Shown: positions 2,313 through 50,126 of the stretch, one piece after another
Layout of the letters: every line of letters starts with the position of its first letter
Position numbering within the stretch: position 1 is the first letter of the stretch
Sequence record: PZ445405.1
DNA from: a phage
Length of the DNA: 50,126 bases
Reading direction: 5' to 3' (one strand)
Program-made: the position numbers and the translations under genes
The notes under the pieces: model-generated
Database searches by the model: none
What the model was told of the DNA's origin: nothing
Seen by the model: only the letters and a program-made list of their open reading frames with translations

Positions 2313-2345
2313 TGAATTTGATGGCTTTTAGTGAGGAGAATTGGG

Positions 2346-3437
2346 ATGTCTAAAATCCGCTATGACAGCGCAAAGGTGAAAGCCCGATTTGATGAAAACG
2401 GTTTTCTGGTTGATACCCCGATTGTTGCTCGCGTCGGGGTGCAAACATACTACCTTCCGGACGGTACAGAACGCAGAGAATTTAGACCAGCCTCAGAGGT
2501 CTTTAAATCTGATTCTCTGGCTAGTTATCAGGGTAAGCCAATTACCTTAGGTCATGTGTTTGTTAACGCAGACAATGCTAAAGAGGTTGTTGTGGGTGCA
2601 GTATCTGGCTCAGCAATGCGCGAAGATTCAAGCGTGATTGTTCCGCTAACCATTTACGATAAGGAGTCAATCGAGAAGGCCAGAAATGGGATCGCTGGTG
2701 AGTTGTCGGTTGGGTACCACACTGTTGATGTTGAGTCCAAAGGCTGGGGTAGCAACGAAACCGGTGAATATAAGCTGGATGGAGAGTATGGCTCACAAGA
2801 TGAGATTCCTTCTGACTGGGTTAGATTTGATGCTCTACAAACCGAAATCAAGGTAAACCACGTCGCTCTTGTTTATAAAGGTCGCGCCGGTGTGGCCAAA
2901 CTTAACTTTGACGCTCATCAGGAAAACCCGTATACTACTGACGTTGATATCAATAAAGAGGATAAACAGGAAATGACAGTTAAAATTAAACTCGACGGCG
3001 CGCAGGAATTTGAAGTCGCACCGGAAATCGCTTCTCACATCGAAGCACTGAACGCAAAGGCTGACACCGCAATCGCTGAACGCGACGCACTGAAAGCTAA
3101 AGTAGATGCAATTCCATCTGAAATCGAAGCTGCCGTTGCCAAAGCGAAAGCTGATGCTGATGCCCTGGCCGCTCTGGTTGCTGTTGCTGCTGAAGCTGGT
3201 GTTAAGGCTGACGGTCTGGATGCTAAAGGCATTAAAGTGGCTTACGTTAAAGAAGTCTCCGGACTTGATGTTTCCGAGAAATCCGACGCGTACATCGACG
3301 CGGCGTTCGACATTGCCAAAGAATCTGATAAAATGGCTGAAGTACGTAAAGCGACTACCGCTTCCGACAAATCTGACAGCGCCGATGAGCCTAAGAAATT
3401 AGACCCGCGTGCTCGTTTAGCTAAAATTAAGAAATAA
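2346..3437 (+). CDS. Prohead protease / scaffold-like protein with Ala-rich coiled-coil C-terminal region
   Basis: Position after portal; C-terminal half AERDALKAKVDAIPSEIEAAVAKAKADADALAAL typical of scaffold domains; SD GAGGAG upstream of ATG 2346. Confidence 0.5.
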   Translation: MSKIRYDSAKVKARFDENGFLVDTPIVARVGVQTYYLPDGTERREFRPASEVFKSDSLASYQGKPITLGHVFVNADNAKEVVVGAVSGSAMREDSSVIVPLTIYDKESIEKARNGIAGELSVGYHTVDVESKGWGSNETGEYKLDGEYGSQDEIPSDWVRFDALQTEIKVNHVALVYKGRAGVAKLNFDAHQENPYTTDVDINKEDKQEMTVKIKLDGAQEFEVAPEIASHIEALNAKADTAIAERDALKAKVDAIPSEIEAAVAKAKADADALAALVAVAAEAGVKADGLDAKGIKVAYVKEVSGLDVSEKSDAYIDAAFDIAKESDKMAEVRKATTASDKSDSADEPKKLDPRARLAKIKK

Positions 3438-3449
3438 GGAGTTATAAAC

Positions 3450-3956
3450 ATGGCAATTCGTTCCGTAGCACTGGCTGGTATGGTTTCTGATACCTCTCTG
3501 TACAACATCGACGGCGCTTGTGTAGTTGGTGGCATTGCTGCAATTCCAGTTGGCACTGCAGTTCGCGTAACAACAGCTCAGCCTATTGATGGGCACAAGG
3601 TTGTAGTTAACACTGGCATCTCAGCAGATGAAACACCGTATGGTGTTGTAATTCGCTCCCATTATGAAACTCCTGATGGAACCGCTAAGGCACAGGAAGC
3701 AGTTAACGTAATGACTCATGGCCGAGTGTGGATGCGCGCAGCGAGCAACGTAACCGCTGAGTCTGTAAAGGTTGGTGCGGCTGTTAGTATTAGCGCATCT
3801 GGTCTCGTTGATACTGGCGGCGTTGGCAAGCCTAACTGGACTTACGCAGGTGGTTTTATTTCTAATGCCGTAACCAACCCTCAAGCCAATGACTTCGATC
3901 AGCAGGATACTAGCGTTGATGGCGCCCTGGTTGAAGTGCAGATTCGTCAGGCATAA
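3450..3956 (+). CDS. Head decoration / accessory structural protein (putative)
   Basis: 168-aa Gly/Val/Ala-rich ORF between scaffold and capsid genes, followed by a strong terminator. Confidence 0.4.
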   Translation: MAIRSVALAGMVSDTSLYNIDGACVVGGIAAIPVGTAVRVTTAQPIDGHKVVVNTGISADETPYGVVIRSHYETPDGTAKAQEAVNVMTHGRVWMRAASNVTAESVKVGAAVSISASGLVDTGGVGKPNWTYAGGFISNAVTNPQANDFDQQDTSVDGALVEVQIRQA

Positions 3957-3989
3957 TCAACTGTTGCAGCTTAATAATTAAGATACATA

Positions 3990-4013
3990 AAGCCTCCTTC
4001 GGGAGGTTTTTTT
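3990..4013 (+). terminator. Rho-independent terminator
   Basis: GCCTCC-ttcg-GGAGG followed by TTTTTTT. Confidence 0.65.
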
Positions 4014-4067
4014 ACGCCTATAATCTGTTAACATGGGGTTCCATAAACGCATAAAGGAAACTTAATA

Positions 4068-5357
4068 ATGAACTTTTTAGATTTAGTCAGAAAGCAATAC
4101 GATAGCGGAAAGGTTAGTCTTTCAGGAGTAAAGGTTAGCACTGACTTCACAACCACTTCATTAATTCAAGCAGCAACGACAATAGCTAACCCAGTCACTC
4201 ACACCCGCAAGGATGAAACTAAATTTAAGTTTACCACTTACGGGCTGGCTGATGTTTCCGGCGGCTCCTATACTGGGCAGTCGCCAAATGGCGTGCAAAT
4301 GAAAATTGAGTTCATGACTGACGCGCTTGTCTTTGAGTTCAAGACTATCGGCTCTATCGGTACGTACTCTGTATTTGTTGATGGAGAGCTAACCAATATT
4401 GATGCAATCTCAACTCCTAACGGTCAAGCCGTTACTTACGTAAGAACCGAAGCCTCAGATGGCGTAATTAAGAGAATGAGACACGTCGAGATTTATGGGG
4501 TGAACACTTCATTCGGCGGGTTGTTTACCGACGCTGCGGATACGGTAACCAGCGAAATCACCATCGATCCAAAACCTTTTATCTACCAGATGGGTGACAG
4601 TTACACGTACGGCACTGGCGCAGGCTACGTAACTCAGGCATACGGCTCATCCCCAGCGATTAACGATTTCTACGTGTTCAGAAATGCGCTAGGCATGGAC
4701 GGCATCGCGGAAGGTATCGGTGGTAGCGGATGGAACAGCACGGGCGGGCAAGTTCCGGCCTCAAGGTTGCAAAACAGACTGCTTAAGATGAATCGCAAGC
4801 CAGATGTTGTTAGTTTCGCTCTCGCATACAATGACGCTGCGGCTATTAACACTGGAACTAACGCAAGCAAACTAGTTACCTCGATGGGTGACGCGCTAAA
4901 GGTTGTCCGAGATGCAATGCCTGGCGTTCCTGTTATTCATGTTAGCTGTGCCACGCCAAAAGGAATCACCACGCAAATTCAGAGAGTCATAGACCTTACT
5001 CATGATTTTTGCGCAAGAAATGACATTCCCGTGATTGGGATTAGTAACTACGTGACTGCGGCGAACAGCATTTCATACACTGGAACGGATAACGTCCACC
5101 CAAACCCTCTGGGGCACGAATTCCGCGGTTTAGCTATGGCAAGGGAGTCATTAATGGCGGCGCTGGAAGGTCGTAGCCTGGTGCCAGAAATCAAACCCAG
5201 CGGTTTCACTGTAACTTACATTGAGCGACTCCGCTTCGCGGTTGATGTTAAGCGTGAGGTTGTTCAAGCTAAAACCGCAGATGAGGCATACTGGATGGTT
5301 AAATCTCGGGAGTACAGCAATCCAGACTTGAGAATCGAAATCATTTCTGTAGCATAA
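4068..5357 (+). CDS. SGNH/GDSL-family hydrolase domain protein (putative esterase) with N-terminal beta-rich domain
   Basis: Catalytic blocks readable in the C-terminal half: GDSYTYG (Ser), GGSGWNS (Gly), AYNDAA (Asn), DNVHPN (Asp-His). Confidence 0.6.
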
Positions 5358-5363
5358 CAACAA

Positions 5364-5386
5364 GCCTCCTTCGGGAGGTTTTTTAT
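5364..5386 (+). terminator. Rho-independent terminator
   Basis: CCTCC-ttcg-GGAGG followed by TTTTTTATT. Confidence 0.65.
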
Positions 5387-5439
5387 TAACCTTAACTCTG
5401 TTAGACTTATTAGGTCTATTAACCAATCAGGAGATTAAG

Positions 5440-6873
5440 ATGGCTAGCGAATTAAGAGCAGTAACCGCTGGGACTGCCCACGCCCTAAAGCAAAAAATCA
5501 TGGAATACATTGCTGATGGTTGGCAGCCTTATGGAAGAATCCTTAACGCTGGAGCGACTAGCGTTGGTATCATCATGGCGAAAGGTACTACAGCAAGCAT
5601 TAATGATGTTGATGTTATTACCGCAGATTCAAGGGCTTCTTTAGTTTCTAAGATTAACTCATCCATCGAAAATGGGTTTGAGATGTTCGGAGAGCAGGAA
5701 GTGAACGCAAGTAGATTTATCGCCTTCATGACTAAGGGTTCTCAAGGTTCATCTGGTGGCGGTGGAGAACCTGGACCAATTGGGCCTAAGGGTGAGAAGG
5801 GTGACAAGGGCGACAAGGGAGATGTTGGTGAGCGCGGACCCGCTGGCCTAGCTGGTGCGGCTGGCGCTACTGGTCCATCTGGCCCTCAAGGTTTAACTGG
5901 CCCCGCCGGCGCTAAAGGTGATACTGGTGAGCAGGGACCAATGGGTCCAACTGGCGCTACTGGACCTAAAGGTGATACTGGCGAAACTGGTCCCGCCGGA
6001 CCGCAGGGCCCAAGAGGATTGCAAGGTGAGCAGGGGGTTCCGGGCGAGGTTGGTCCTGCTGGATTGACATTCCAGGGCGCATGGGATTCTGCTGCGACAT
6101 ATGTGAAGGATGACACTGTAGTTTATGATGGGTCTACTTGGTTTGCTCCAGATGCTGTAGCTGCTGGATTAGTCCCTGGAGTTGCTACTGAGTGGATTCT
6201 TTTAGCTGCGCAAGGCGCAAGGGGCGAGGATGGTCCGCAGGGTCCGGTTGGCCCTCAGGGTTTACAGGGTGCCACTGGCCCAGCGGGTCCTACTGGTGCT
6301 ACTGGTGCTACAGGCCCGCAAGGCCCTAGAGGTATACAAGGTCAAACTGGCCCGGCAGGCCCAGCAGGTCCTCAGGGTGAGGCTGGTCCTCAGGGTATTC
6401 AGGGTCCGCAGGGTGTCGCTGGGCCTCAGGGATTAACTGGTCCTCAGGGTCCAAAAGGTGATAAAGGCGATGCTCCTTACACATTATTTAACTCGCAGAA
6501 CGTTACATCAACATACATTGAAATCCCTATTCCGCAAGTAACCAACACTGTACTTAGGGTTAGGCTTTCAGGTGCCAACTTTGAATATAGCGTTTTAAGC
6601 AAAGGCGGCGCCAATAGATATGTTGACTTTTACACATTCATCCCGTCATTAACTAGCTCAACGGGTAACATCTATACCGGAGGAACTACCTTGACACCAA
6701 CTGGTAGCCTCTTTTTGGGTAACTCCCCCGTGGCTCTTGGATTGAGGGAGTTGACAATAACACTCAAGGAATGGGGCGACAGAACGCTAACTACAATAAA
6801 GGCGATACATCACGGCAGATCAGGTGACACAACAAGACCTTTGCAGATAACTATGTTTAGTAATAAGTATTAA
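5440..6873 (+). CDS. Collagen-like (Gly-X-Y repeat) protein, probable virion fibre
   Basis: Two long uninterrupted G-X-Y tracts ([20 protein letters not shown].. and [22 protein letters not shown]..) flanked by globular N- and C-terminal domains. Confidence 0.8.
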
Positions 6874-6953
6874 CAAAAAGCCCACCATTGCGTGGGCTAA
6901 AAACTCGTGTATAATGAACCCGTAGACACCTAACTGAAAAGGAACAATAAAGA

Positions 6954-7898
6954 ATGGCCATTAAATTTGATGCAGAACAAGCTAAAATCACCGCTCACCT
7001 TGAGCAAATGGGCGTAGAAAAGGCCGATGCCGCTGGTATCTGGACTGTTAAGCAGCTGACCGCTACTCTGAATCGCGCTTACGAAAAAGAATATGCAGAC
7101 AACTCTGTTGTTAACATCTTCCCTGTAACCAATGAAATCCCTGGTCATGCGAAGTATTTCGAATATCCAGAGTTTGATGGTGTTGGCATTGCTCAGATTA
7201 TCGCTGATTACTCTGACGACCTTCCGTTGGTTGACGCCTTCATGACTGAGAAGCAAGGTAAAGTGTTCCGTTTCGGTAACGCATTCCTAATTTCTACTGA
7301 TGAAATCAAAGCAGGCGCCGCAACTGGTCAGTCACTGTCAACTCGCAAACAAGCACTGGCATTCGAAGCGCACGACAATCTGCTTGATAAACTGGTTTGG
7401 TCTGGCTCCGCTCCGCATGGTATCGTAAGCGTATTCGACCAGCCGAACATCAACAACGTTGTCGCAACTCCAGACTGGAGTGAGCCGCTGAACGCAATTA
7501 ATGACGTCACCGCGATGATTGATGCAGTTGAGACTTCAACTCAGGGTTTCCATCACGTGACTGATATTCTGCTTCCGGCATCTGCTCGCCGAGTAATGCA
7601 GCAACTGGTTCCGAATACTACCCTGAGTTACGGTGAACTGTTCACTCGTAACAACCCGGGTCTGACTATTCGCTTTATGCAGTTCCTGGACAACTACGAT
7701 GGCGCAGGTGGCAAGGCTGCTCTGGCGTTTGAGAAGAATCCATTGAATATGTCTATCGAGATTCCGGAAGCTACTAACGTTCTTCCGGCTCAACCTAGAG
7801 ATCTGCATTTCCGCTACCCTGTAACATCAAAAGCGACAGGTTTGATTGTTTATCGTCCTCTGACGATGGCTGTAATCAAAGGCATTACCTTCGCTTAA
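6954..7898 (+). CDS. Major capsid protein (putative)
   Basis: 314-aa ORF at the expected position in the head module with a good SD, followed by a strong terminator; no sequence motif recognised. Confidence 0.55.
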   Translation: MAIKFDAEQAKITAHLEQMGVEKADAAGIWTVKQLTATLNRAYEKEYADNSVVNIFPVTNEIPGHAKYFEYPEFDGVGIAQIIADYSDDLPLVDAFMTEKQGKVFRFGNAFLISTDEIKAGAATGQSLSTRKQALAFEAHDNLLDKLVWSGSAPHGIVSVFDQPNINNVVATPDWSEPLNAINDVTAMIDAVETSTQGFHHVTDILLPASARRVMQQLVPNTTLSYGELFTRNNPGLTIRFMQFLDNYDGAGGKAALAFEKNPLNMSIEIPEATNVLPAQPRDLHFRYPVTSKATGLIVYRPLTMAVIKGITFA

Positions 7899-27228: not shown

Positions 27229-29748
27229 TTACCCAGTTGCTCCAGTAACTATATTTTTCCATCCAGTCCCTGTCGCAAAAGCAATTAATCCAGTACCCGT
27301 ACCAAACGATGCATTATTGTTAGTGCATGATTGATTTCCGGTGCGCTGGAGATTTGCAGCATCTACAGTTAAACCAAATCCATAGGCACGATAGTTGAAG
27401 CCACTTTTTGCATTTGATGGGATGAGCGAGTTACCATAGTTTATTGCACCGTAGATATCAACAATCCCTGCTGCGGTCGTTTCAATTGGATTTCCCGAAG
27501 TGGAAATAAGCGTTACGTTACTTGCCGTTACCATTCCTCCAGAATAAAACAGGGCAAGTTTTCCACTGTTCGCACCTGTAACATTACTCAGTATCACTCT
27601 TGGTGATGAGGCGTCTGCATTGGCAGCGAATTGCCTGAACAGATGGCCGTTAGAATAAACCATATCAGAAATGTTTATATTTTTTAACGTTCCTCCACGA
27701 ATTTGGCAGAGTGTTGCCTCTGTTTTATGATCTACCGACCCTTTTATAGTTACGTTGTCAACAACACCTCTCGTAACCAGGCACAATGAACTGTACTGGT
27801 CACCACTTAACAAAGTATTTTTTGACTTGATATTAACGTTAAGGATTCTTGACTTATCATTTCCAGATCCTTCACCACATGCGAATCCAAACTTAGAATT
27901 TCTTGGCGCATCCATGTCTAAGTTATAGACTGTGACACCAACAGACCCCCTAACGTCAACAACAGGAGTTGATATATTAGTTAAGTTAGTGGATACGCCT
28001 TCCACTACCACTTGATCAGCAAACACCTCGCCCAGGCCACGGTCGTAAATTTCACACAGTGCATGGCCCGCTCCAGGAATAGCGGATATATCATCAAATA
28101 TTGCATATTTAACCGTTGTTTTTGTTAGGTTATGATCAGCCCAAATTCTTACCGGAGCATGTTGGCAGGTGCCATGTATTCCCCGTACAGATACATGCTT
28201 AAACTCAACACCATCGTTACCTGCAAGCTTTACAGCACACAGAGTTGTGTCATTAAATAACCCTTCAACATCGATAAATGTGAAATTTCCTCGAGTCCCT
28301 AAGTCATATGATGCGTAATCTCCACCGGTCATTGCGAATAAGTCGTCTCCGGTATGACCACGTAGATTCCTTACATACGCATGGTAGATGGGTGGTTGCA
28401 AGTGAAGACCATCAGAGTGATTGTCAAACTCAAGACCCTGAGCATCAAGGTAATCAATATTCGCTACAAGATAGGCATACTTGAACGCCCCACCAACTTT
28501 AAGTCCACCACCAAGTTTTAGCCTTTTAACACCAGCTATACAGATGGCATGGGTATTAAGCCCTCCTGGAGCAGTACCGGATTTGTTATAATTTATAATT
28601 CCACCACCACGAATTCCAAGATAATCAGATTTTTTAGTCAGGTCCGAAGGGTTTGATATGGTATCAAACCAATACTCACTAATAAATAAAGGCATGTTTG
28701 TGCCTTCTACGTTTCTAATCTCTGTTCCTGCGTGAATCAATACATCCATATTGTTTTTTAGCAGTAAAGAACCATTTACCAACACAACTCCTTTGCAGTC
28801 AAAAACAAATTGAGAAATGAAAGATTGTCCTCCTAGCGACGAAAATACCGAGTTAATCCTTGCAGTATTCTCTTCTGCCGTAGAAGATGGGGATACACCA
28901 TAATCAGACATAAAATAAGTTTGCCCAACGCGCACATCCAAAGGCATAGGAACCCCAGGGCCATTTGGATTTGTGTATGTGACTAGTGACGAACCAGATC
29001 CAGAAGCTAAGTTAGCTCTTAATGATGTATCACTAGCTCTAACCCATGCACCAGGACCAATACCACCAGATGATTCAGGAGTTGATCCAGCTGGAACAAC
29101 CTTAGGTAACGTTCCTGACCAAAGGAACTGTACGGCATAACCATCAATGAATTGAATTATCACTTGGTTTTTTGACTGAAGAGTTACTCCATCATCAAAG
29201 TTACCAACCAGGGCTCCGGATACTGATTCAGCGGCACTCTGAGCGACGATTGCAGAATTGCTTGCAGATGACGCGGAACTAGAAGCTGAATCCTTGTCTG
29301 CTGATACCTGAGATGCATCAGATGATACCTGAGAAGCAATAGTAACAATTTCTCCAAACTGTGTGTTAACTTGGTTTACATCAGTTGAGAATTTATCATG
29401 ATCAAAATCCTTGAAAACATCAACCGCCTCTGCAATCGCAGTTTCACGCGACTGATAGTGACGAAGTGTTTCCGCAACATCTTGAGCTAAACCCTGAACG
29501 GTAATTCCATCATGCGCAAGGATTGCGTAACCAGTACCAGCAGGAACGGTTTCAGAATTAGGGTTGTAAACATTAATCTGCGTATCGCTGATAATTTCTG
29601 AGATGGTGTAAATTTTTACTGGTTCAGTTTTGAAAACAATGGTAGCACCTACGCGAATCAGTGTAAGCGGTGCTTTCCATGTAGTTCCCACGCCGGTCAC
29701 CTCGCCATTTGCGGATAACGACGCCGTTCCTAAGTCATAAATTGCCAT
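27229..29748 (-). CDS. Side tail fibre / tailspike-like protein (839 aa)
   Basis: Large Gly/Ser/Asn/Thr-rich protein with Ser-rich linker (SSDASQVSADKDSASSSASSASNS); start at ATG 29748 with SD GGAG. Confidence 0.6.
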   Translation of the reverse strand: MAIYDLGTASLSANGEVTGVGTTWKAPLTLIRVGATIVFKTEPVKIYTISEIISDTQINVYNPNSETVPAGTGYAILAHDGITVQGLAQDVAETLRHYQSRETAIAEAVDVFKDFDHDKFSTDVNQVNTQFGEIVTIASQVSSDASQVSADKDSASSSASSASNSAIVAQSAAESVSGALVGNFDDGVTLQSKNQVIIQFIDGYAVQFLWSGTLPKVVPAGSTPESSGGIGPGAWVRASDTSLRANLASGSGSSLVTYTNPNGPGVPMPLDVRVGQTYFMSDYGVSPSSTAEENTARINSVFSSLGGQSFISQFVFDCKGVVLVNGSLLLKNNMDVLIHAGTEIRNVEGTNMPLFISEYWFDTISNPSDLTKKSDYLGIRGGGIINYNKSGTAPGGLNTHAICIAGVKRLKLGGGLKVGGAFKYAYLVANIDYLDAQGLEFDNHSDGLHLQPPIYHAYVRNLRGHTGDDLFAMTGGDYASYDLGTRGNFTFIDVEGLFNDTTLCAVKLAGNDGVEFKHVSVRGIHGTCQHAPVRIWADHNLTKTTVKYAIFDDISAIPGAGHALCEIYDRGLGEVFADQVVVEGVSTNLTNISTPVVDVRGSVGVTVYNLDMDAPRNSKFGFACGEGSGNDKSRILNVNIKSKNTLLSGDQYSSLCLVTRGVVDNVTIKGSVDHKTEATLCQIRGGTLKNINISDMVYSNGHLFRQFAANADASSPRVILSNVTGANSGKLALFYSGGMVTASNVTLISTSGNPIETTAAGIVDIYGAINYGNSLIPSNAKSGFNYRAYGFGLTVDAANLQRTGNQSCTNNNASFGTGTGLIAFATGTGWKNIVTGATG

Positions 29749-29771
29749 AATTTCAACTCCTATTTTTATTG

Positions 29772-29789
29772 ATAGCACGAATTGCTAAA
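29772..29789 (+). promoter_or_regulatory. Orphan palindromic box ATAGCACGAATTGCTAAA without downstream -10 or leader
   Basis: Perfect box lying between two minus-strand genes, 24 nt from the tail-fibre start codon. Confidence 0.4.
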
Positions 29790-29811: not shown

Positions 29812-29842
29812 CATAAAAAAACCTCCCGAAGGAGGTTAGTTT
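29812..29842. terminator. Bidirectional terminator overlapping the primase stop codon
   Basis: CCTCC-cgaa-GGAGG flanked by A7 and TTAGTTT. Confidence 0.55.
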
Positions 29843-30759
29843 AGTAGTTCGCTTGCCTTATAGATTCTCTTTCTTATTCCTGACTTGAAAAAATTATCAT
29901 CATTTGGCATTACCACATCAATATTGCGATCGTCAGCAACGGCGAGTAAATCAAGATCGTGGCGAGTACAAGCGATGCGTAACTTGTATTTTCTAAGCGC
30001 GTAAGCAACCATTTCCATGTTGTAGATGGAGTAGCAAACAAGCACGCAGCGGTTGCCAGTAGCAATGTGAACACGATAGCCGTCAATGAGATTATCGACC
30101 AGATAAGCGTAATCATCATCCTTAAAGGAACCAATAACAGAAACAGATTGGCGAGTATAATCTTTTGCAGCATAACTAACACCTCCATATTCATTGATAA
30201 ACATTACATTACACATTTCTTCTGATATGCCGTCACTATAAGCCATAAAGCACGGCACTGCGTGTATTAGTTCGCCTGATTTTGTTCTGCCAACATCAAA
30301 GCCAAACTCGCTATAGATTCCCTCGTATGTACTGAGCGGAGTTGATTCTACTCTTTCAGTCCTTTCCATTATCTCTAAGCATCTTTCGTGGTCAATCTGA
30401 GCGCCCATTTTGTAGATCTGGGTTCTTGATGCTTGCTTGTTTGCTTTAACTATAACCTCAATTGGTGTTAAGTTCAGCCAGTCACCAAGCAAATTTACTG
30501 AATCGGCGAAGGACGATCCAGTGCACTTCATGACCCATCCTATACCGGAGTCACTCCCGCATTTCGAACAAACTGCCGCGCCATTTCCTTTTTCACTGCC
30601 TATTTCGTCGGTAAATCTGAATCTGTCAGTGCCAAAGCAGTATGGGCATGGTCCGTGCTTCTTACTTAGGTGTCTATCATTCCAACCAAGTTCCTTTGCA
30701 TAAAATGATTTCCACAATCCGGCCATCTTAGGTATAACTTCATTCTTATCGTAATTCAT
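29836..30759 (-). CDS. DNA primase-like protein with zinc-ribbon
   Basis: Cys motifs CPYCFG..CSKCGSD in the N-terminal region; ATGA coupling with the upstream HNH gene; replication gene context. Confidence 0.5.
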   Translation of the reverse strand: MNYDKNEVIPKMAGLWKSFYAKELGWNDRHLSKKHGPCPYCFGTDRFRFTDEIGSEKGNGAAVCSKCGSDSGIGWVMKCTGSSFADSVNLLGDWLNLTPIEVIVKANKQASRTQIYKMGAQIDHERCLEIMERTERVESTPLSTYEGIYSEFGFDVGRTKSGELIHAVPCFMAYSDGISEEMCNVMFINEYGGVSYAAKDYTRQSVSVIGSFKDDDYAYLVDNLIDGYRVHIATGNRCVLVCYSIYNMEMVAYALRKYKLRIACTRHDLDLLAVADDRNIDVVMPNDDNFFKSGIRKRIYKASELLN

Positions 30760-47950: not shown

Positions 47951-48457
47951 ATGAGCAAAGCAGCATTAAAGATGGGCGAGGGAAATTTCAAGGCGCTCTA
48001 CAACAAGAAGTATGGCGACATTGCTATGGTGGCAATCAACCGCAAGTACACGCCTGAGGAGGTATTTGACTTTGCCGTTCGATACTTCTCATGGGCCGAG
48101 AGTGAGGCAATAAAAGCAATTGAGACGGCAGCATTTCAAGGCGTGGTTAGTGAAAGCCTGGTACATAAACCTCGAGTGTTCACATTAACCGGGCTGGCGC
48201 TCTTCATGGGTGTTAATATCAATAGATTCGCTCGCTGGCGTACTGAGGCTGGATACTCTGATGTGATGGAATTTATTGATAACGTAATTTACGAGCAGAA
48301 ATACCAACTTGGCGTTGCGGGTATCATCAACTCTACCATTGTCGGTAAAGAGCTAGGCATTGATAAGCCGCAGGAAATCACTATTAGCAACAACTCCACC
48401 GCTAACGACGTTGATAGCATGAAGGAAGCGCTGGAGTCTGTGATTAGTAAGCTGTAA
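47951..48457 (+). CDS. Terminase small subunit (putative)
   Basis: 168-aa ORF immediately upstream of the large terminase gene; SD AGGAGG. Confidence 0.55.
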   Translation: MSKAALKMGEGNFKALYNKKYGDIAMVAINRKYTPEEVFDFAVRYFSWAESEAIKAIETAAFQGVVSESLVHKPRVFTLTGLALFMGVNINRFARWRTEAGYSDVMEFIDNVIYEQKYQLGVAGIINSTIVGKELGIDKPQEITISNNSTANDVDSMKEALESVISKL

Positions 48458-48558: not shown

Positions 48559-50126
48559 ATGGCTAATTTAATCTGGGAAGAAATGACAAGTCAGGAGAAA
48601 TTAGCCGTTAAAGCTATCTCAGAGCATAGTTTTGAGGGCTTTTTAAGGTGTTGGTTTTCAATAACACAAGGCGAGCGATACATACCTAACTGGCATCACA
48701 AGTACCTGTGTAGAATCATTGACGAGATTATCGCAGGGGAACGTAAGGACACCATCATCAACATAGCGCCGGGCAGCGGAAAGACAGAAATCGCTTCAAT
48801 CCACTTCCCTGCCTACTCTATGGTTAAGCTGAAGAAGGTGCGGAACCTTAACATCTCCTTTGCTGACTCACTGGTTAAGCGTAACTCGAAGCGCGTACGT
48901 GACCTTATCAAATCTCAAGAATTTCAATCACTCTGGCCATGCAAGTTTGGAACGTGCAAAGACGATGAACTTCAGGTTCTTGATGAGAATGGCAGGGTTA
49001 GATTTGAGTCAATATCAAAGGCGGCGGGAGGTCAGATTACAGGCGCTCGAGGTGGCTATATAACAGAAACATACAGCGGGGCCGTTCTATTGGATGATTT
49101 CGACAAGCCGGCTGACATGCTTTCTCAGGTTTATCGAACGAATAATCACGTAATGCTCAAGAACACAATTCGCTCACGTCGAGCTAGCTCTGTGAAAGGC
49201 AAGGCAACGCCAATAATTTCTATACAGCAGCGACTCCATGTGAATGATAGCACTTGGTTCATGATGGAAGGTGGTATGGGTATTGACTTCGACTTGATTA
49301 AGATACCGGCATTGGTTACTGAGGATTACATTGATTCACTTCCTGACTGGATTAAAGAGCAGTTTGCTGATGACGTACTAAGTAGCGAATATATTGAGCG
49401 AGATGGCGTAAAATACTACAGTTATTTCCCTAAAAAGGAATCTGTAAACGACCTAGTGGCAATGTGGGATAGTGACCCGTACACATTCCTTAGCCAGTAT
49501 CAGCAGGAACCTGTAGCGCTCGGCGGCAATCTGATTAACGTGGATTGGTTCCAGAGAATCAGCGATACGTTCAGACCTCCAGCTAAATATGACTATCGAT
49601 TCATAACTTGCGACACTGCGATGACTACAAAGAGTTATAGTGACTTCTCTGTACTTCAATTGTGGGGCTATAAAGATGCCAAGATTTACCTGATAGACCA
49701 GCGTAGAGGTAAGTGGGAGGCGCCGGAGTTGGAATCTGAACTACTGGATTTCGAGAGGAAATCAAGAGCAACCAGTCAGACGGATGGTATCCTTAGAAAG
49801 ATTATCATCGAGAAGAAGGCTTCCGGAATTGGCCTAATTCAATCCGCAGGTAGAGTTATGCGAACACCGATAGAGCCATATGTTCCGGATAACGACAAGC
49901 TAACCAGGATAATGAGCGCCCTGCCGCAGATTAAGGCTGGTAACGTCGTTCTTCCAGAATCAGCACCGTGGCTAAATGGATTGCTTACGGAGGTTGCGGC
50001 TTTCACCGCGGATGACTCTCATAAGCACGACGACCAAATTGACTGTCTAACAATGGCGGTAAACCTTGTTCTCAATATAGCAGATGATCCAAAATCAAGA
50101 ATGCTTCGCCTTGCCGGAATAAAATA
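48559..50126 (+). CDS. Terminase large subunit (3' end truncated by window edge, about 522 codons present)
   Basis: Open frame to the window end (absent from the ORF track because no stop is reached); Walker A APGSGKT, Walker B-like LLDDFD, C-terminal nuclease motif DDSHKHDDQIDC. Confidence 0.85.
   Translation, partial: MANLIWEEMTSQEKLAVKAISEHSFEGFLRCWFSITQGERYIPNWHHKYLCRIIDEIIAGERKDTIINIAPGSGKTEIASIHFPAYSMVKLKKVRNLNISFADSLVKRNSKRVRDLIKSQEFQSLWPCKFGTCKDDELQVLDENGRVRFESISKAAGGQITGARGGYITETYSGAVLLDDFDKPADMLSQVYRTNNHVMLKNTIRSRRASSVKGKATPIISIQQRLHVNDSTWFMMEGGMGIDFDLIKIPALVTEDYIDSLPDWIKEQFADDVLSSEYIERDGVKYYSYFPKKESVNDLVAMWDSDPYTFLSQYQQEPVALGGNLINVDWFQRISDTFRPPAKYDYRFITCDTAMTTKSYSDFSVLQLWGYKDAKIYLIDQRRGKWEAPELESELLDFERKSRATSQTDGILRKIIIEKKASGIGLIQSAGRVMRTPIEPYVPDNDKLTRIMSALPQIKAGNVVLPESAPWLNGLLTEVAAFTADDSHKHDDQIDCLTMAVNLVLNIADDPKSRMLRLAGIK

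Follow-up and report, generated by a model that had tools for sequence, protein, structure and literature searches.

A gene for an SGNH/GDSL esterase in the midst of phage head genes raises the question of what its product does and where on, in or beside the particle it does so. The case studied here lies in a stretch of phage DNA of 50,126 nucleotides (sequence record PZ445405.1), referred to as the window throughout, which by DNA and protein comparison belongs to the Drexlerviridae, the virulent family of T1-like coliphages. The gene occupies positions 4068–5357 (+), starts with ATG, encodes 429 residues plus a stop codon and carries a Shine-Dalgarno-like AAGGA (4054–4058, +; read from the sequence) 9 nucleotides 5' of its start. 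An initial annotation had called the same open reading frame (ORF) of 429 residues, which its start codon and its family matches bear out, and had suggested a capsid-displayed enzyme, an enzyme co-packaged in the head or a moron acting on the host envelope. We propose that the product may be an active CE2-like glycan O-acetylesterase, encoded in an exchangeable head-accessory cassette and displayed on the virion, most probably on the capsid, a reading that we regard as evenly balanced. Taken separately, and judged by comparison with related systems, display on the virion appears likely and display on the head plausible.

At the level of sequence, the gene product is confirmed as an SGNH esterase whose catalytic set is intact. 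Residues 173–352 match Pfam Lipase_GDSL_2 (PF13472; E=4.2e-13, 50.6 bits against a cutoff of 32.9) and Lipase_GDSL (E=1.8e-8), and the protein matches PHROG 9703 with E=4.8e-111, covering profile positions 167–496 only. Among 5.8 billion clustered proteins, 53 homologues were found, of which three are metagenomic sequences at 96% identity. The conservation of the catalytic blocks was read from an alignment of 39 sequences with identities down to 27%. Block I, G176-D177-S178 with the nucleophile Ser178 (4593–4601, +), and block III, N255-D256 with the oxyanion-hole asparagine (4830–4835, +), are invariant; so are G216 and G218 of block II, G216-I217-G218, which provides the oxyanion-hole glycine (4713–4721, +). 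In block V, D341-N-V-H344 (5088–5099, +), which holds the Asp and His of the triad, H344 is invariant and D341 is conserved in at least 90% of the sequences. The window protein carries all four blocks by which the SGNH/GDSL superfamily is recognized (GDS, Gly, GxND and DxxH). The initial annotation had read the same four from the letters and had named a replaced catalytic Ser or His, once properly aligned, as grounds for rejection; neither residue is replaced in any of the 39 sequences. As the blocks are invariant over such deep divergence, the catalytic set must be under strong conservation, which argues for selection on catalysis. Note that several family members, those of Sd1, Sf12, IME542 and Opt-719, already bear the database labels 'SGNH/GDSL hydrolase' or 'head decoration', and the window gene is a fresh member of a deposited and automatically annotated, but uncharacterized family.

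An AlphaFold2 model calculated from the same alignment has a mean predicted local distance difference test score (pLDDT) of 89.7 and a predicted template modelling score of 0.85, and it divides the protein into four parts. Residues 1–25 (4068–4142, +) are an N-terminal helix segment, with a helix at 3–12 modelled at a pLDDT of ~95, that is conserved in the alignment only within the Drexlerviridae group. Residues 26–165 (4143–4562, +), with strands from 27 to 155, form a beta-sandwich that resembles CE2_N according to the model and to Foldseek; the initial annotation had proposed structure prediction for precisely this N-terminal domain. The SGNH catalytic domain follows at residues 166–361 (4563–5150, +), as evidenced by Pfam, Foldseek and the alpha/beta pattern of the model, in which strands and helices alternate over residues 171–367 as in the three-layer alpha/beta/alpha fold of the superfamily with its parallel central sheet, and dozens of SGNH structures are found among the Foldseek matches. 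Residues 362–429 (5151–5354, +) make up a family-specific C-terminal domain of ~65 residues, a compact beta-beta-alpha-beta unit (378–428 in the model) that reaches a pLDDT of 89 when modelled alone. An N-terminal hydrophobic signal sequence was not seen when the protein sequence was judged by eye.

In the PDB, the top Foldseek match is the acyltransferase SsfX3 (3skv; E=3.8e-15), across both main domains. It is followed by the CE2 esterases 2wab, 2waa, 4xvh and Est2A, likewise over both domains and with E-values of 1e-12 to 5e-11, and then by the peptidoglycan O-acetylesterase Ape1. The alignments to 2wab, 2waa and 4xvh run over ~350–370 columns with template modelling scores of 0.50–0.68 and thus embrace both domains of CE2, the same N-terminal beta-sandwich followed by an SGNH domain being found in CtCE2 (2wab/2wao), CjCE2 (2waa/2w9x), Est2A (3u37) and SsfX3. 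At the level of sequence, Pfam CE2_N (PF17996) stays below its cutoff (17.0 bits against 27.9, E=0.006), and identity to the CE2 structures is merely 11–15%. The window protein is CE2-like in architecture without being a CE2 member by sequence. It differs from CE2 and SsfX3 in adding the N-terminal helix and the ~65-residue C-terminal domain, as well as in being phage-encoded and probably virion-associated.

These structural matches bring up an alternative in which the protein does not hydrolyze glycan esters, but transfers acyl groups as SsfX3 does, acts as a lipase or phospholipase, or is a glycan-binding decoration with a catalytically irrelevant active site. The best PDB match and one neighbour in BFVD that is named phospholipase A1 point in this direction, and the sequence does not reveal the substrate. 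That an acyltransferase tops the list is a first point against the reading that we prefer, and it is the reason why hydrolase chemistry is something that we infer. Nevertheless, the complete set of hydrolase catalytic residues has stayed invariant among highly divergent sequences, the other top matches are carbohydrate acetyl-esterases (CE2, the acetyl-xylan esterases and Ape1), and an extracellular virion enzyme would presumably be without an acyl-CoA or acyl-carrier donor, so that we consider such a function highly improbable.

If the product is a glycan esterase, the question becomes where it is placed, and here its distant homologues are informative. The homologues in Karamvirus phages show 35% identity over residues 27–354 (tblastn E ~1e-41), and the N-terminus of one of them, P0026, matches the capsid-binding domain of T4 Hoc (Hoc 294–361) with E=2.9e-10; it is this domain that accounts for the label 'head decoration' on PHROG 9703. 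The Karamvirus proteins (CC31, PG7 and Pet-CM3-4) have the beta-sandwich, the SGNH domain and the invariant catalytic residues in common with the window protein, but differ from it in having the N-terminal Hoc domain and a GGxGY linker domain and in lacking its C-terminal domain. Their genes lie in an early hyperplastic region near rIIA and topoisomerase, whereas the window gene is in the head module. In Cronobacter phage Pet-CM3-4 (locus L014, 3434–4969) and in P0026, the Hoc domain stands at the N-terminus of a 511-residue esterase, while in T4 Hoc itself it is C-terminal. In lambdoid prophages (L012, 7187–9353; L013, 5747–7336) the side-tail-fibre N-terminal domain PF08400 is either fused to the module or precedes it; the lambdoid module sits in the late region, between the lysis cassette and the terminase genes. 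As far as these sequence matches go, the beta-sandwich and SGNH module is repeatedly tied to virion anchors, with the kind of anchor deciding between head and tail.

A place on the tail, the neck or the lateral fibres, with the gene merely encoded in the head module, therefore has to be weighed. The structural neighbours of the window protein in BFVD are mostly annotated as tail fibre, minor tail or neck(-passage) proteins, in agreement with the remark in the initial annotation that phage SGNH esterases are normally tail-associated, and the lambdoid relatives make use of a tail-fibre N-terminal domain. Known tail esterases likewise carry an SGNH domain on a virion protein and act on surface polysaccharide: gp053 of phiPsa374, which is called a 'tail fibre' and has an SGNH domain, has been confirmed in the virion (PMC9796965), Possum has a deacetylating tail fibre (PMC9569702), and those of Moo19/B2 are tailspikes (PMC11654681). 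However, all these esterases are encoded in tail modules and have tail-fibre or tailspike attachment domains, in contrast to a window gene that lies between cement and capsid genes. Comparison of the esterase with the lateral tail fibre of the same phage, at its N-terminal anchor, and with the tail proteins revealed no similarity; an anchor shared with the lateral tail fibre (27229–29778, -) or with the neighbouring collagen-like protein was sought by BLASTP, which gave nothing significant. In addition, siphophage gene order usually mirrors the site of assembly, and the neighbouring cassettes bear a capsid-binding domain. A tail or neck location consequently appears unlikely to us.

The genomic context was then examined for what it says about the head. 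The gene order is portal (1023–2312), DUF2213 protease/scaffold (2331–3437), capsid cement/decoration protein (3450–3956, +; Pfam PF22758 Phage_cement, E=6.7e-23), esterase, a collagen-like protein with N-terminal DUF1737 (5440–6873, +; Pfam Collagen E=2e-29, DUF1737 32.6 bits) and major capsid protein (MCP; 6954–7898, +; Pfam PF09950 E=4.7e-36, PHROG 264). This upholds the assignment of the gene to the head module, although not its placement directly between scaffold and capsid: it is flanked by the cement gene upstream and the collagen-like gene downstream, and protease/scaffold and MCP are each one gene further. The same arrangement recurs in 11 of 11 examined Drexlerviridae loci with a homologue (Opt-719, IME542, Sd1, seven metagenomic contigs and the window), where the gene always follows cement and precedes a fibre gene or the MCP gene; Sf12 and three further Opt-type isolates gave full-length homologue matches. 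The head-module location had been called unusual, which holds in so far as structurally similar phage SGNH proteins are mostly annotated as tail or neck components, but not within the family, given that Sd1, IME542 and Opt-719 have the gene at the same place.

The interval between the cement gene, its left border, and the MCP gene, its right border, behaves as a hotspot for insertion. In vB_EcoS-12210I (L016) it is empty: cement and capsid genes are 112 bp apart, and the spacer joins the hairpin that ends the cement gene straight to the equivalent of window positions 6885–6953, from which we deduce a two-cassette insertion of ~2.87 kb in the window (4013–6884, +) that comprises the esterase and the collagen-like fibre. 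Among 90 phage records matching the query 3400–7000, 81 do so at 80–90% identity only. The 25 Veterinaerplatzvirus-type records among the matches listed cover ~15% of this query, with their cement and MCP ends ~700 bp apart, and as only the two ends of the query are matched, their site is taken to be empty. RobRod40 (Braunvirinae), the record nearest to the window, followed by e4/1c and Veterinaerplatzvirus, has an unrelated ORF of 181 residues at the place of the esterase, and the junction ahead of its fibre gene is hybrid, with sequence from both of the intergenic regions that border the esterase in the window. Close relatives display all four states, an empty site, a fibre without esterase (RobRod40), an esterase alone (IME542), and both.

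The borders of the cassette are marked by hairpins. The upstream hairpin with its T-run (AAGCCTCCTTCGGGAGGTTTTTT; 3990–4012, +) is the left boundary of the inserted block and an exact 23-nucleotide repeat of the downstream one (5362–5384, +), an intrinsic-terminator-like hairpin with an 8-bp stem and a T-run, for which the initial annotation had rightly claimed a terminator of the gene's own. The two 23-nucleotide copies are identical, with 0 matches expected by chance, and in 10 of 11 related loci (L001–L011) the borders of cassettes carry the hairpin core CCTCCTTCGGGAGG. A further element of exchange may be an island of high identity at ~5170–5450 (+), where L005 and L007 match the window at 88–97% of nucleotides between flanks of 55–65% (sliding identity). 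These ~280 nucleotides run from the part coding for the C-terminal domain through the hairpin and the intergenic region into the first codons of the fibre gene, and on the sequence pattern they probably constitute a recombination linker for cassette shuffling. A minus-strand ORF within it (5151–5426, 91 residues) was considered as the cause of the island, but is broken in 5 of 10 relatives and hence a chance ORF. With an empty site in L016, a hybrid junction in RobRod40 and hairpins on both sides, the cassette is a discrete insertion with its own terminator, as is characteristic of a moron. That part of the initial moron proposal stands, but a protein from a virulent family in which no signal peptide was seen is unlikely to work on the host envelope from within the cell.

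What else is found in the hotspot bears on the function of the site. The product of the collagen-like gene contains two tandem DUF1737-like units (residues ~1–48 and 55–100; the DUF1737 score compares with a cutoff of 24), and the other hotspot cassettes all start with such units, two in tandem in most and with the first one truncated in L009; a neighbouring cassette in one relative has the phi29 head-fibre domain PF11133. According to a 2026 preprint on the Stx phage phi24B by electron cryomicroscopy (cryo-EM), DUF1737 binds the centre of the capsid hexon as a hexamer and anchors gp84, a NanS-type esterase, as a capsid decoration (bioRxiv 10.64898/2026.04.10.717836). A collagen trimer with two DUF1737 units per chain would have six such units, matching the hexon-binding hexamer. 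Both PHROG 5073 and the GenBank entries of relatives call the collagen-like protein a 'tail fiber', but by analogy with phi24B it is probably a misannotated head fibre. The DUF1737 cassettes, the phi29 head-fibre domain and the hexon binding in phi24B together argue that this slot would code for capsid-surface accessories.

For the esterase itself, gp84/NanS-p of phi24B, a phage carbohydrate esterase with a jelly-roll domain on the capsid, provides a precedent for head-displayed enzymes. The likeness has its limits, as gp84 has a NanS-related esterase domain, a different domain order and an N-terminal DUF1737 that is not detectable in the window esterase, and gp84 is proteolytically processed, for which the window esterase shows no sign. 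In the mechanism that we envisage, the esterase would be made late, alongside the head proteins. Its N-terminal beta-sandwich and its SGNH domain, with the triad Ser178-His344-Asp341 and the oxyanion hole Gly218/Asn255, would act as a carbohydrate O-acetylesterase. Because there is no signal sequence, it could reach extracellular glycan only on the virion or via lysis. It would sit on the outside of the virion, most probably on the capsid, held by the C-terminal domain and possibly also by the N-terminal helix, and would strip O-acetyl groups off polysaccharides of the bacterial surface (O-antigen, capsule, enterobacterial common antigen or colanic acid) or off acetylated mucin glycans of the host. 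Such deacetylation might help the particle to move through, or to bind transiently to, glycan layers. Esterase activity, substrate, virion association and a site on the head rather than on the tail are all points that we infer from the comparisons given above.

The candidate for the attachment or oligomerization module in the model is the C-terminal domain, residues 362–429. Its identity to homologues is independent of that of the enzyme body: in P0017 the C-terminal domain is 91–95% identical and the enzyme body 40–44%, while in P0005 the values are 29–39% and 74–78%, respectively. This fits a separately folding unit that is exchanged independently of the enzyme. In search of a known anchor we considered a diverged or permuted DUF1737, which was suggestive by eye, but hhalign returned a probability of 0.6% with E=0.1 and Pfam found nothing; a database search with the DUF1737 N-terminus, made to deepen the profile, yielded one fragment only. 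Four giant repetitive proteins that matched the C-terminal profile showed scattered sub-threshold Pfam matches and were judged to be compositional artefacts. Pfam has no match for the C-terminal 63 or the N-terminal 169 residues, even at E<=10.

A series of further results weighs against capsid display. In a profile search of 1.84 billion representatives the C-terminal domain occurs on no other cargo and is confined to this esterase family, and a fold search with it gave no significant match, the best (E=0.07) being ribosomal eL20/LX-like and none a capsid-binding fold. The Hoc domain is absent from the window protein, as evidenced by a PHROG match that begins at position 167 and by a PDB sequence search that finds no Hoc, and neither DUF1737 nor PF08400 is found in it by Pfam. 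Identity of the C-terminal domain to that of the window does not co-vary with the identity of MCP, cement, portal or protease; in IME542, for instance, the MCP is 95% identical and the C-terminal domain 46%. Furthermore, the island of high identity includes non-coding DNA, so that the C-terminal domain may be conserved in some relatives owing to recent recombination and not because a binding interface is under selection. Finally, the literature yielded no virion proteomics or structure for a Drexlerviridae phage that carries the gene, and nothing on Drexlerviridae SGNH proteins, on Hoc-SGNH fusions or on the proteomics of Sd1, Sf12 and IME542; the T1-like proteomics paper reports seven major proteins only. 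A cryo-EM paper on Sf11 describes a gpD/TW1-like beta-tulip decoration protein without mention of Drexlerviridae or Sf12, and was set aside as concerning a different capsid system. The suggestion of capsid display in the initial annotation thus draws support from the Hoc fusions and from DUF1737 next door, but is not backed by a known capsid anchor or by co-variation with capsid and cement. Co-packaging inside the head, another of its suggestions, is unsupported; the homologues are fused to external anchors.

The same results are compatible with a soluble, non-structural enzyme that is produced late, is released at lysis and deacetylates glycans on neighbouring cells and debris, either unmasking receptors for the progeny or destroying them, with the C-terminal domain as an oligomerization or substrate-binding module. 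A protein without recognizable virion anchor and without co-variation with capsid proteins would be expected in this case, the cassette is optional and missing in most close relatives, as for a dispensable accessory gene, and the terminators on both sides suggest that it is expressed at a level independent of the stoichiometric head proteins. On the other hand, homologues elsewhere are fused to virion-attachment domains, the Hoc D4 domain and the Stf N-terminus, the position among genes for the capsid surface is constant in all 11 loci, and the N- and C-terminal segments specific to Drexlerviridae stand in place of the anchors seen elsewhere. We regard release as a soluble enzyme as possible, but distinctly less probable than display on the virion. 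Action as a peptidoglycan O-acetylesterase in lysis was rejected, given that the lysis genes are not close by and that the peptidoglycan of E. coli is not known to be O-acetylated.

Returning to virion display, a more specific version of this reading is that T1-like phages possess a plug-and-play head-accessory locus, whose hairpin-bounded cassettes would lend exchangeable functions to the capsid surface and to which the esterase would contribute via a new capsid-binding domain of ~65 residues and the collagen fibre via six DUF1737 units per trimer. By analogy with the systems discussed we consider this tenable, albeit somewhat short of even. The more interesting result is the context, namely the hairpin-bounded hotspot, the link between Hoc and the esterase, and the likely head-fibre nature of the DUF1737-collagen gene, which points to a probable systematic misannotation of DUF1737-collagen 'tail fibers' that are likely head fibres. 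Head-borne phage enzymes are just starting to be recognized, with phi24B gp84 and the uncharacterized Hoc-esterase fusions so far. A capsid-borne esterase, if real, would extend the adherence of phages to mucus and glycans from passive Ig-like binders to catalytic decorations, and the capsid, in addition to the tail, would play an enzymatic part in the passage of the particle through glycan layers. A further benefit would be a coliphage system that is small and amenable to genetics and in which relatives with an empty site, the fibre only, the esterase only or both serve as natural controls, so that the effect of a head-displayed deacetylase on adsorption, on host range and on diffusion through mucus or biofilm could be tested directly. 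The hotspot with its conserved hairpin linkers would be a natural insertion site for engineered capsid display in T1-like phages.

Several minor observations concern the hotspot and its surroundings. A third type of cassette, absent from the window, consists of ORFs of ~180 residues right after cement (L001, 4611–5156; L005, 5386–5919; L007, 1131–1694), for which Pfam has no match; those of RobRod40 and L005 have a conserved C-terminal tail in common, ...KKSGWALVKYEEVDSPE. A third copy of the hairpin, with 2 mismatches, is located at 29816–29838 (-), between the primase gene (29836–30759, -) and the gene for the lateral tail fibre or tailspike, which is hypervariable, and thus adjoins another exchangeable gene for a surface protein. 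With regard to transcription, no sigma-70-like promoter was called in 3957–4067 by a scan that does not cover T1-type late promoters, and an isolated TATAAT is read at 4019–4024. Just 5' of the MCP gene, the stretch 6880–6953, which is conserved in the empty-site relative, holds a hairpin that lacks a T-run on the plus strand and, after it, an extended -10-like TGTATAAT (~6908–6915). The sequence here suggests that the capsid gene has a promoter of its own, downstream of the cassette terminators.

At the left end of the window, upstream of the portal gene, lie the genes for an HNH endonuclease (55–540) and for a small virion protein (612–992). The small terminase gene is found at 47951–48457, and the ORF list shows no complete large-terminase ORF before the window ends at position 50126, the HNH endonuclease gene at the window start being the next. 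The window may represent a circularly permuted whole genome that was cut inside terL.

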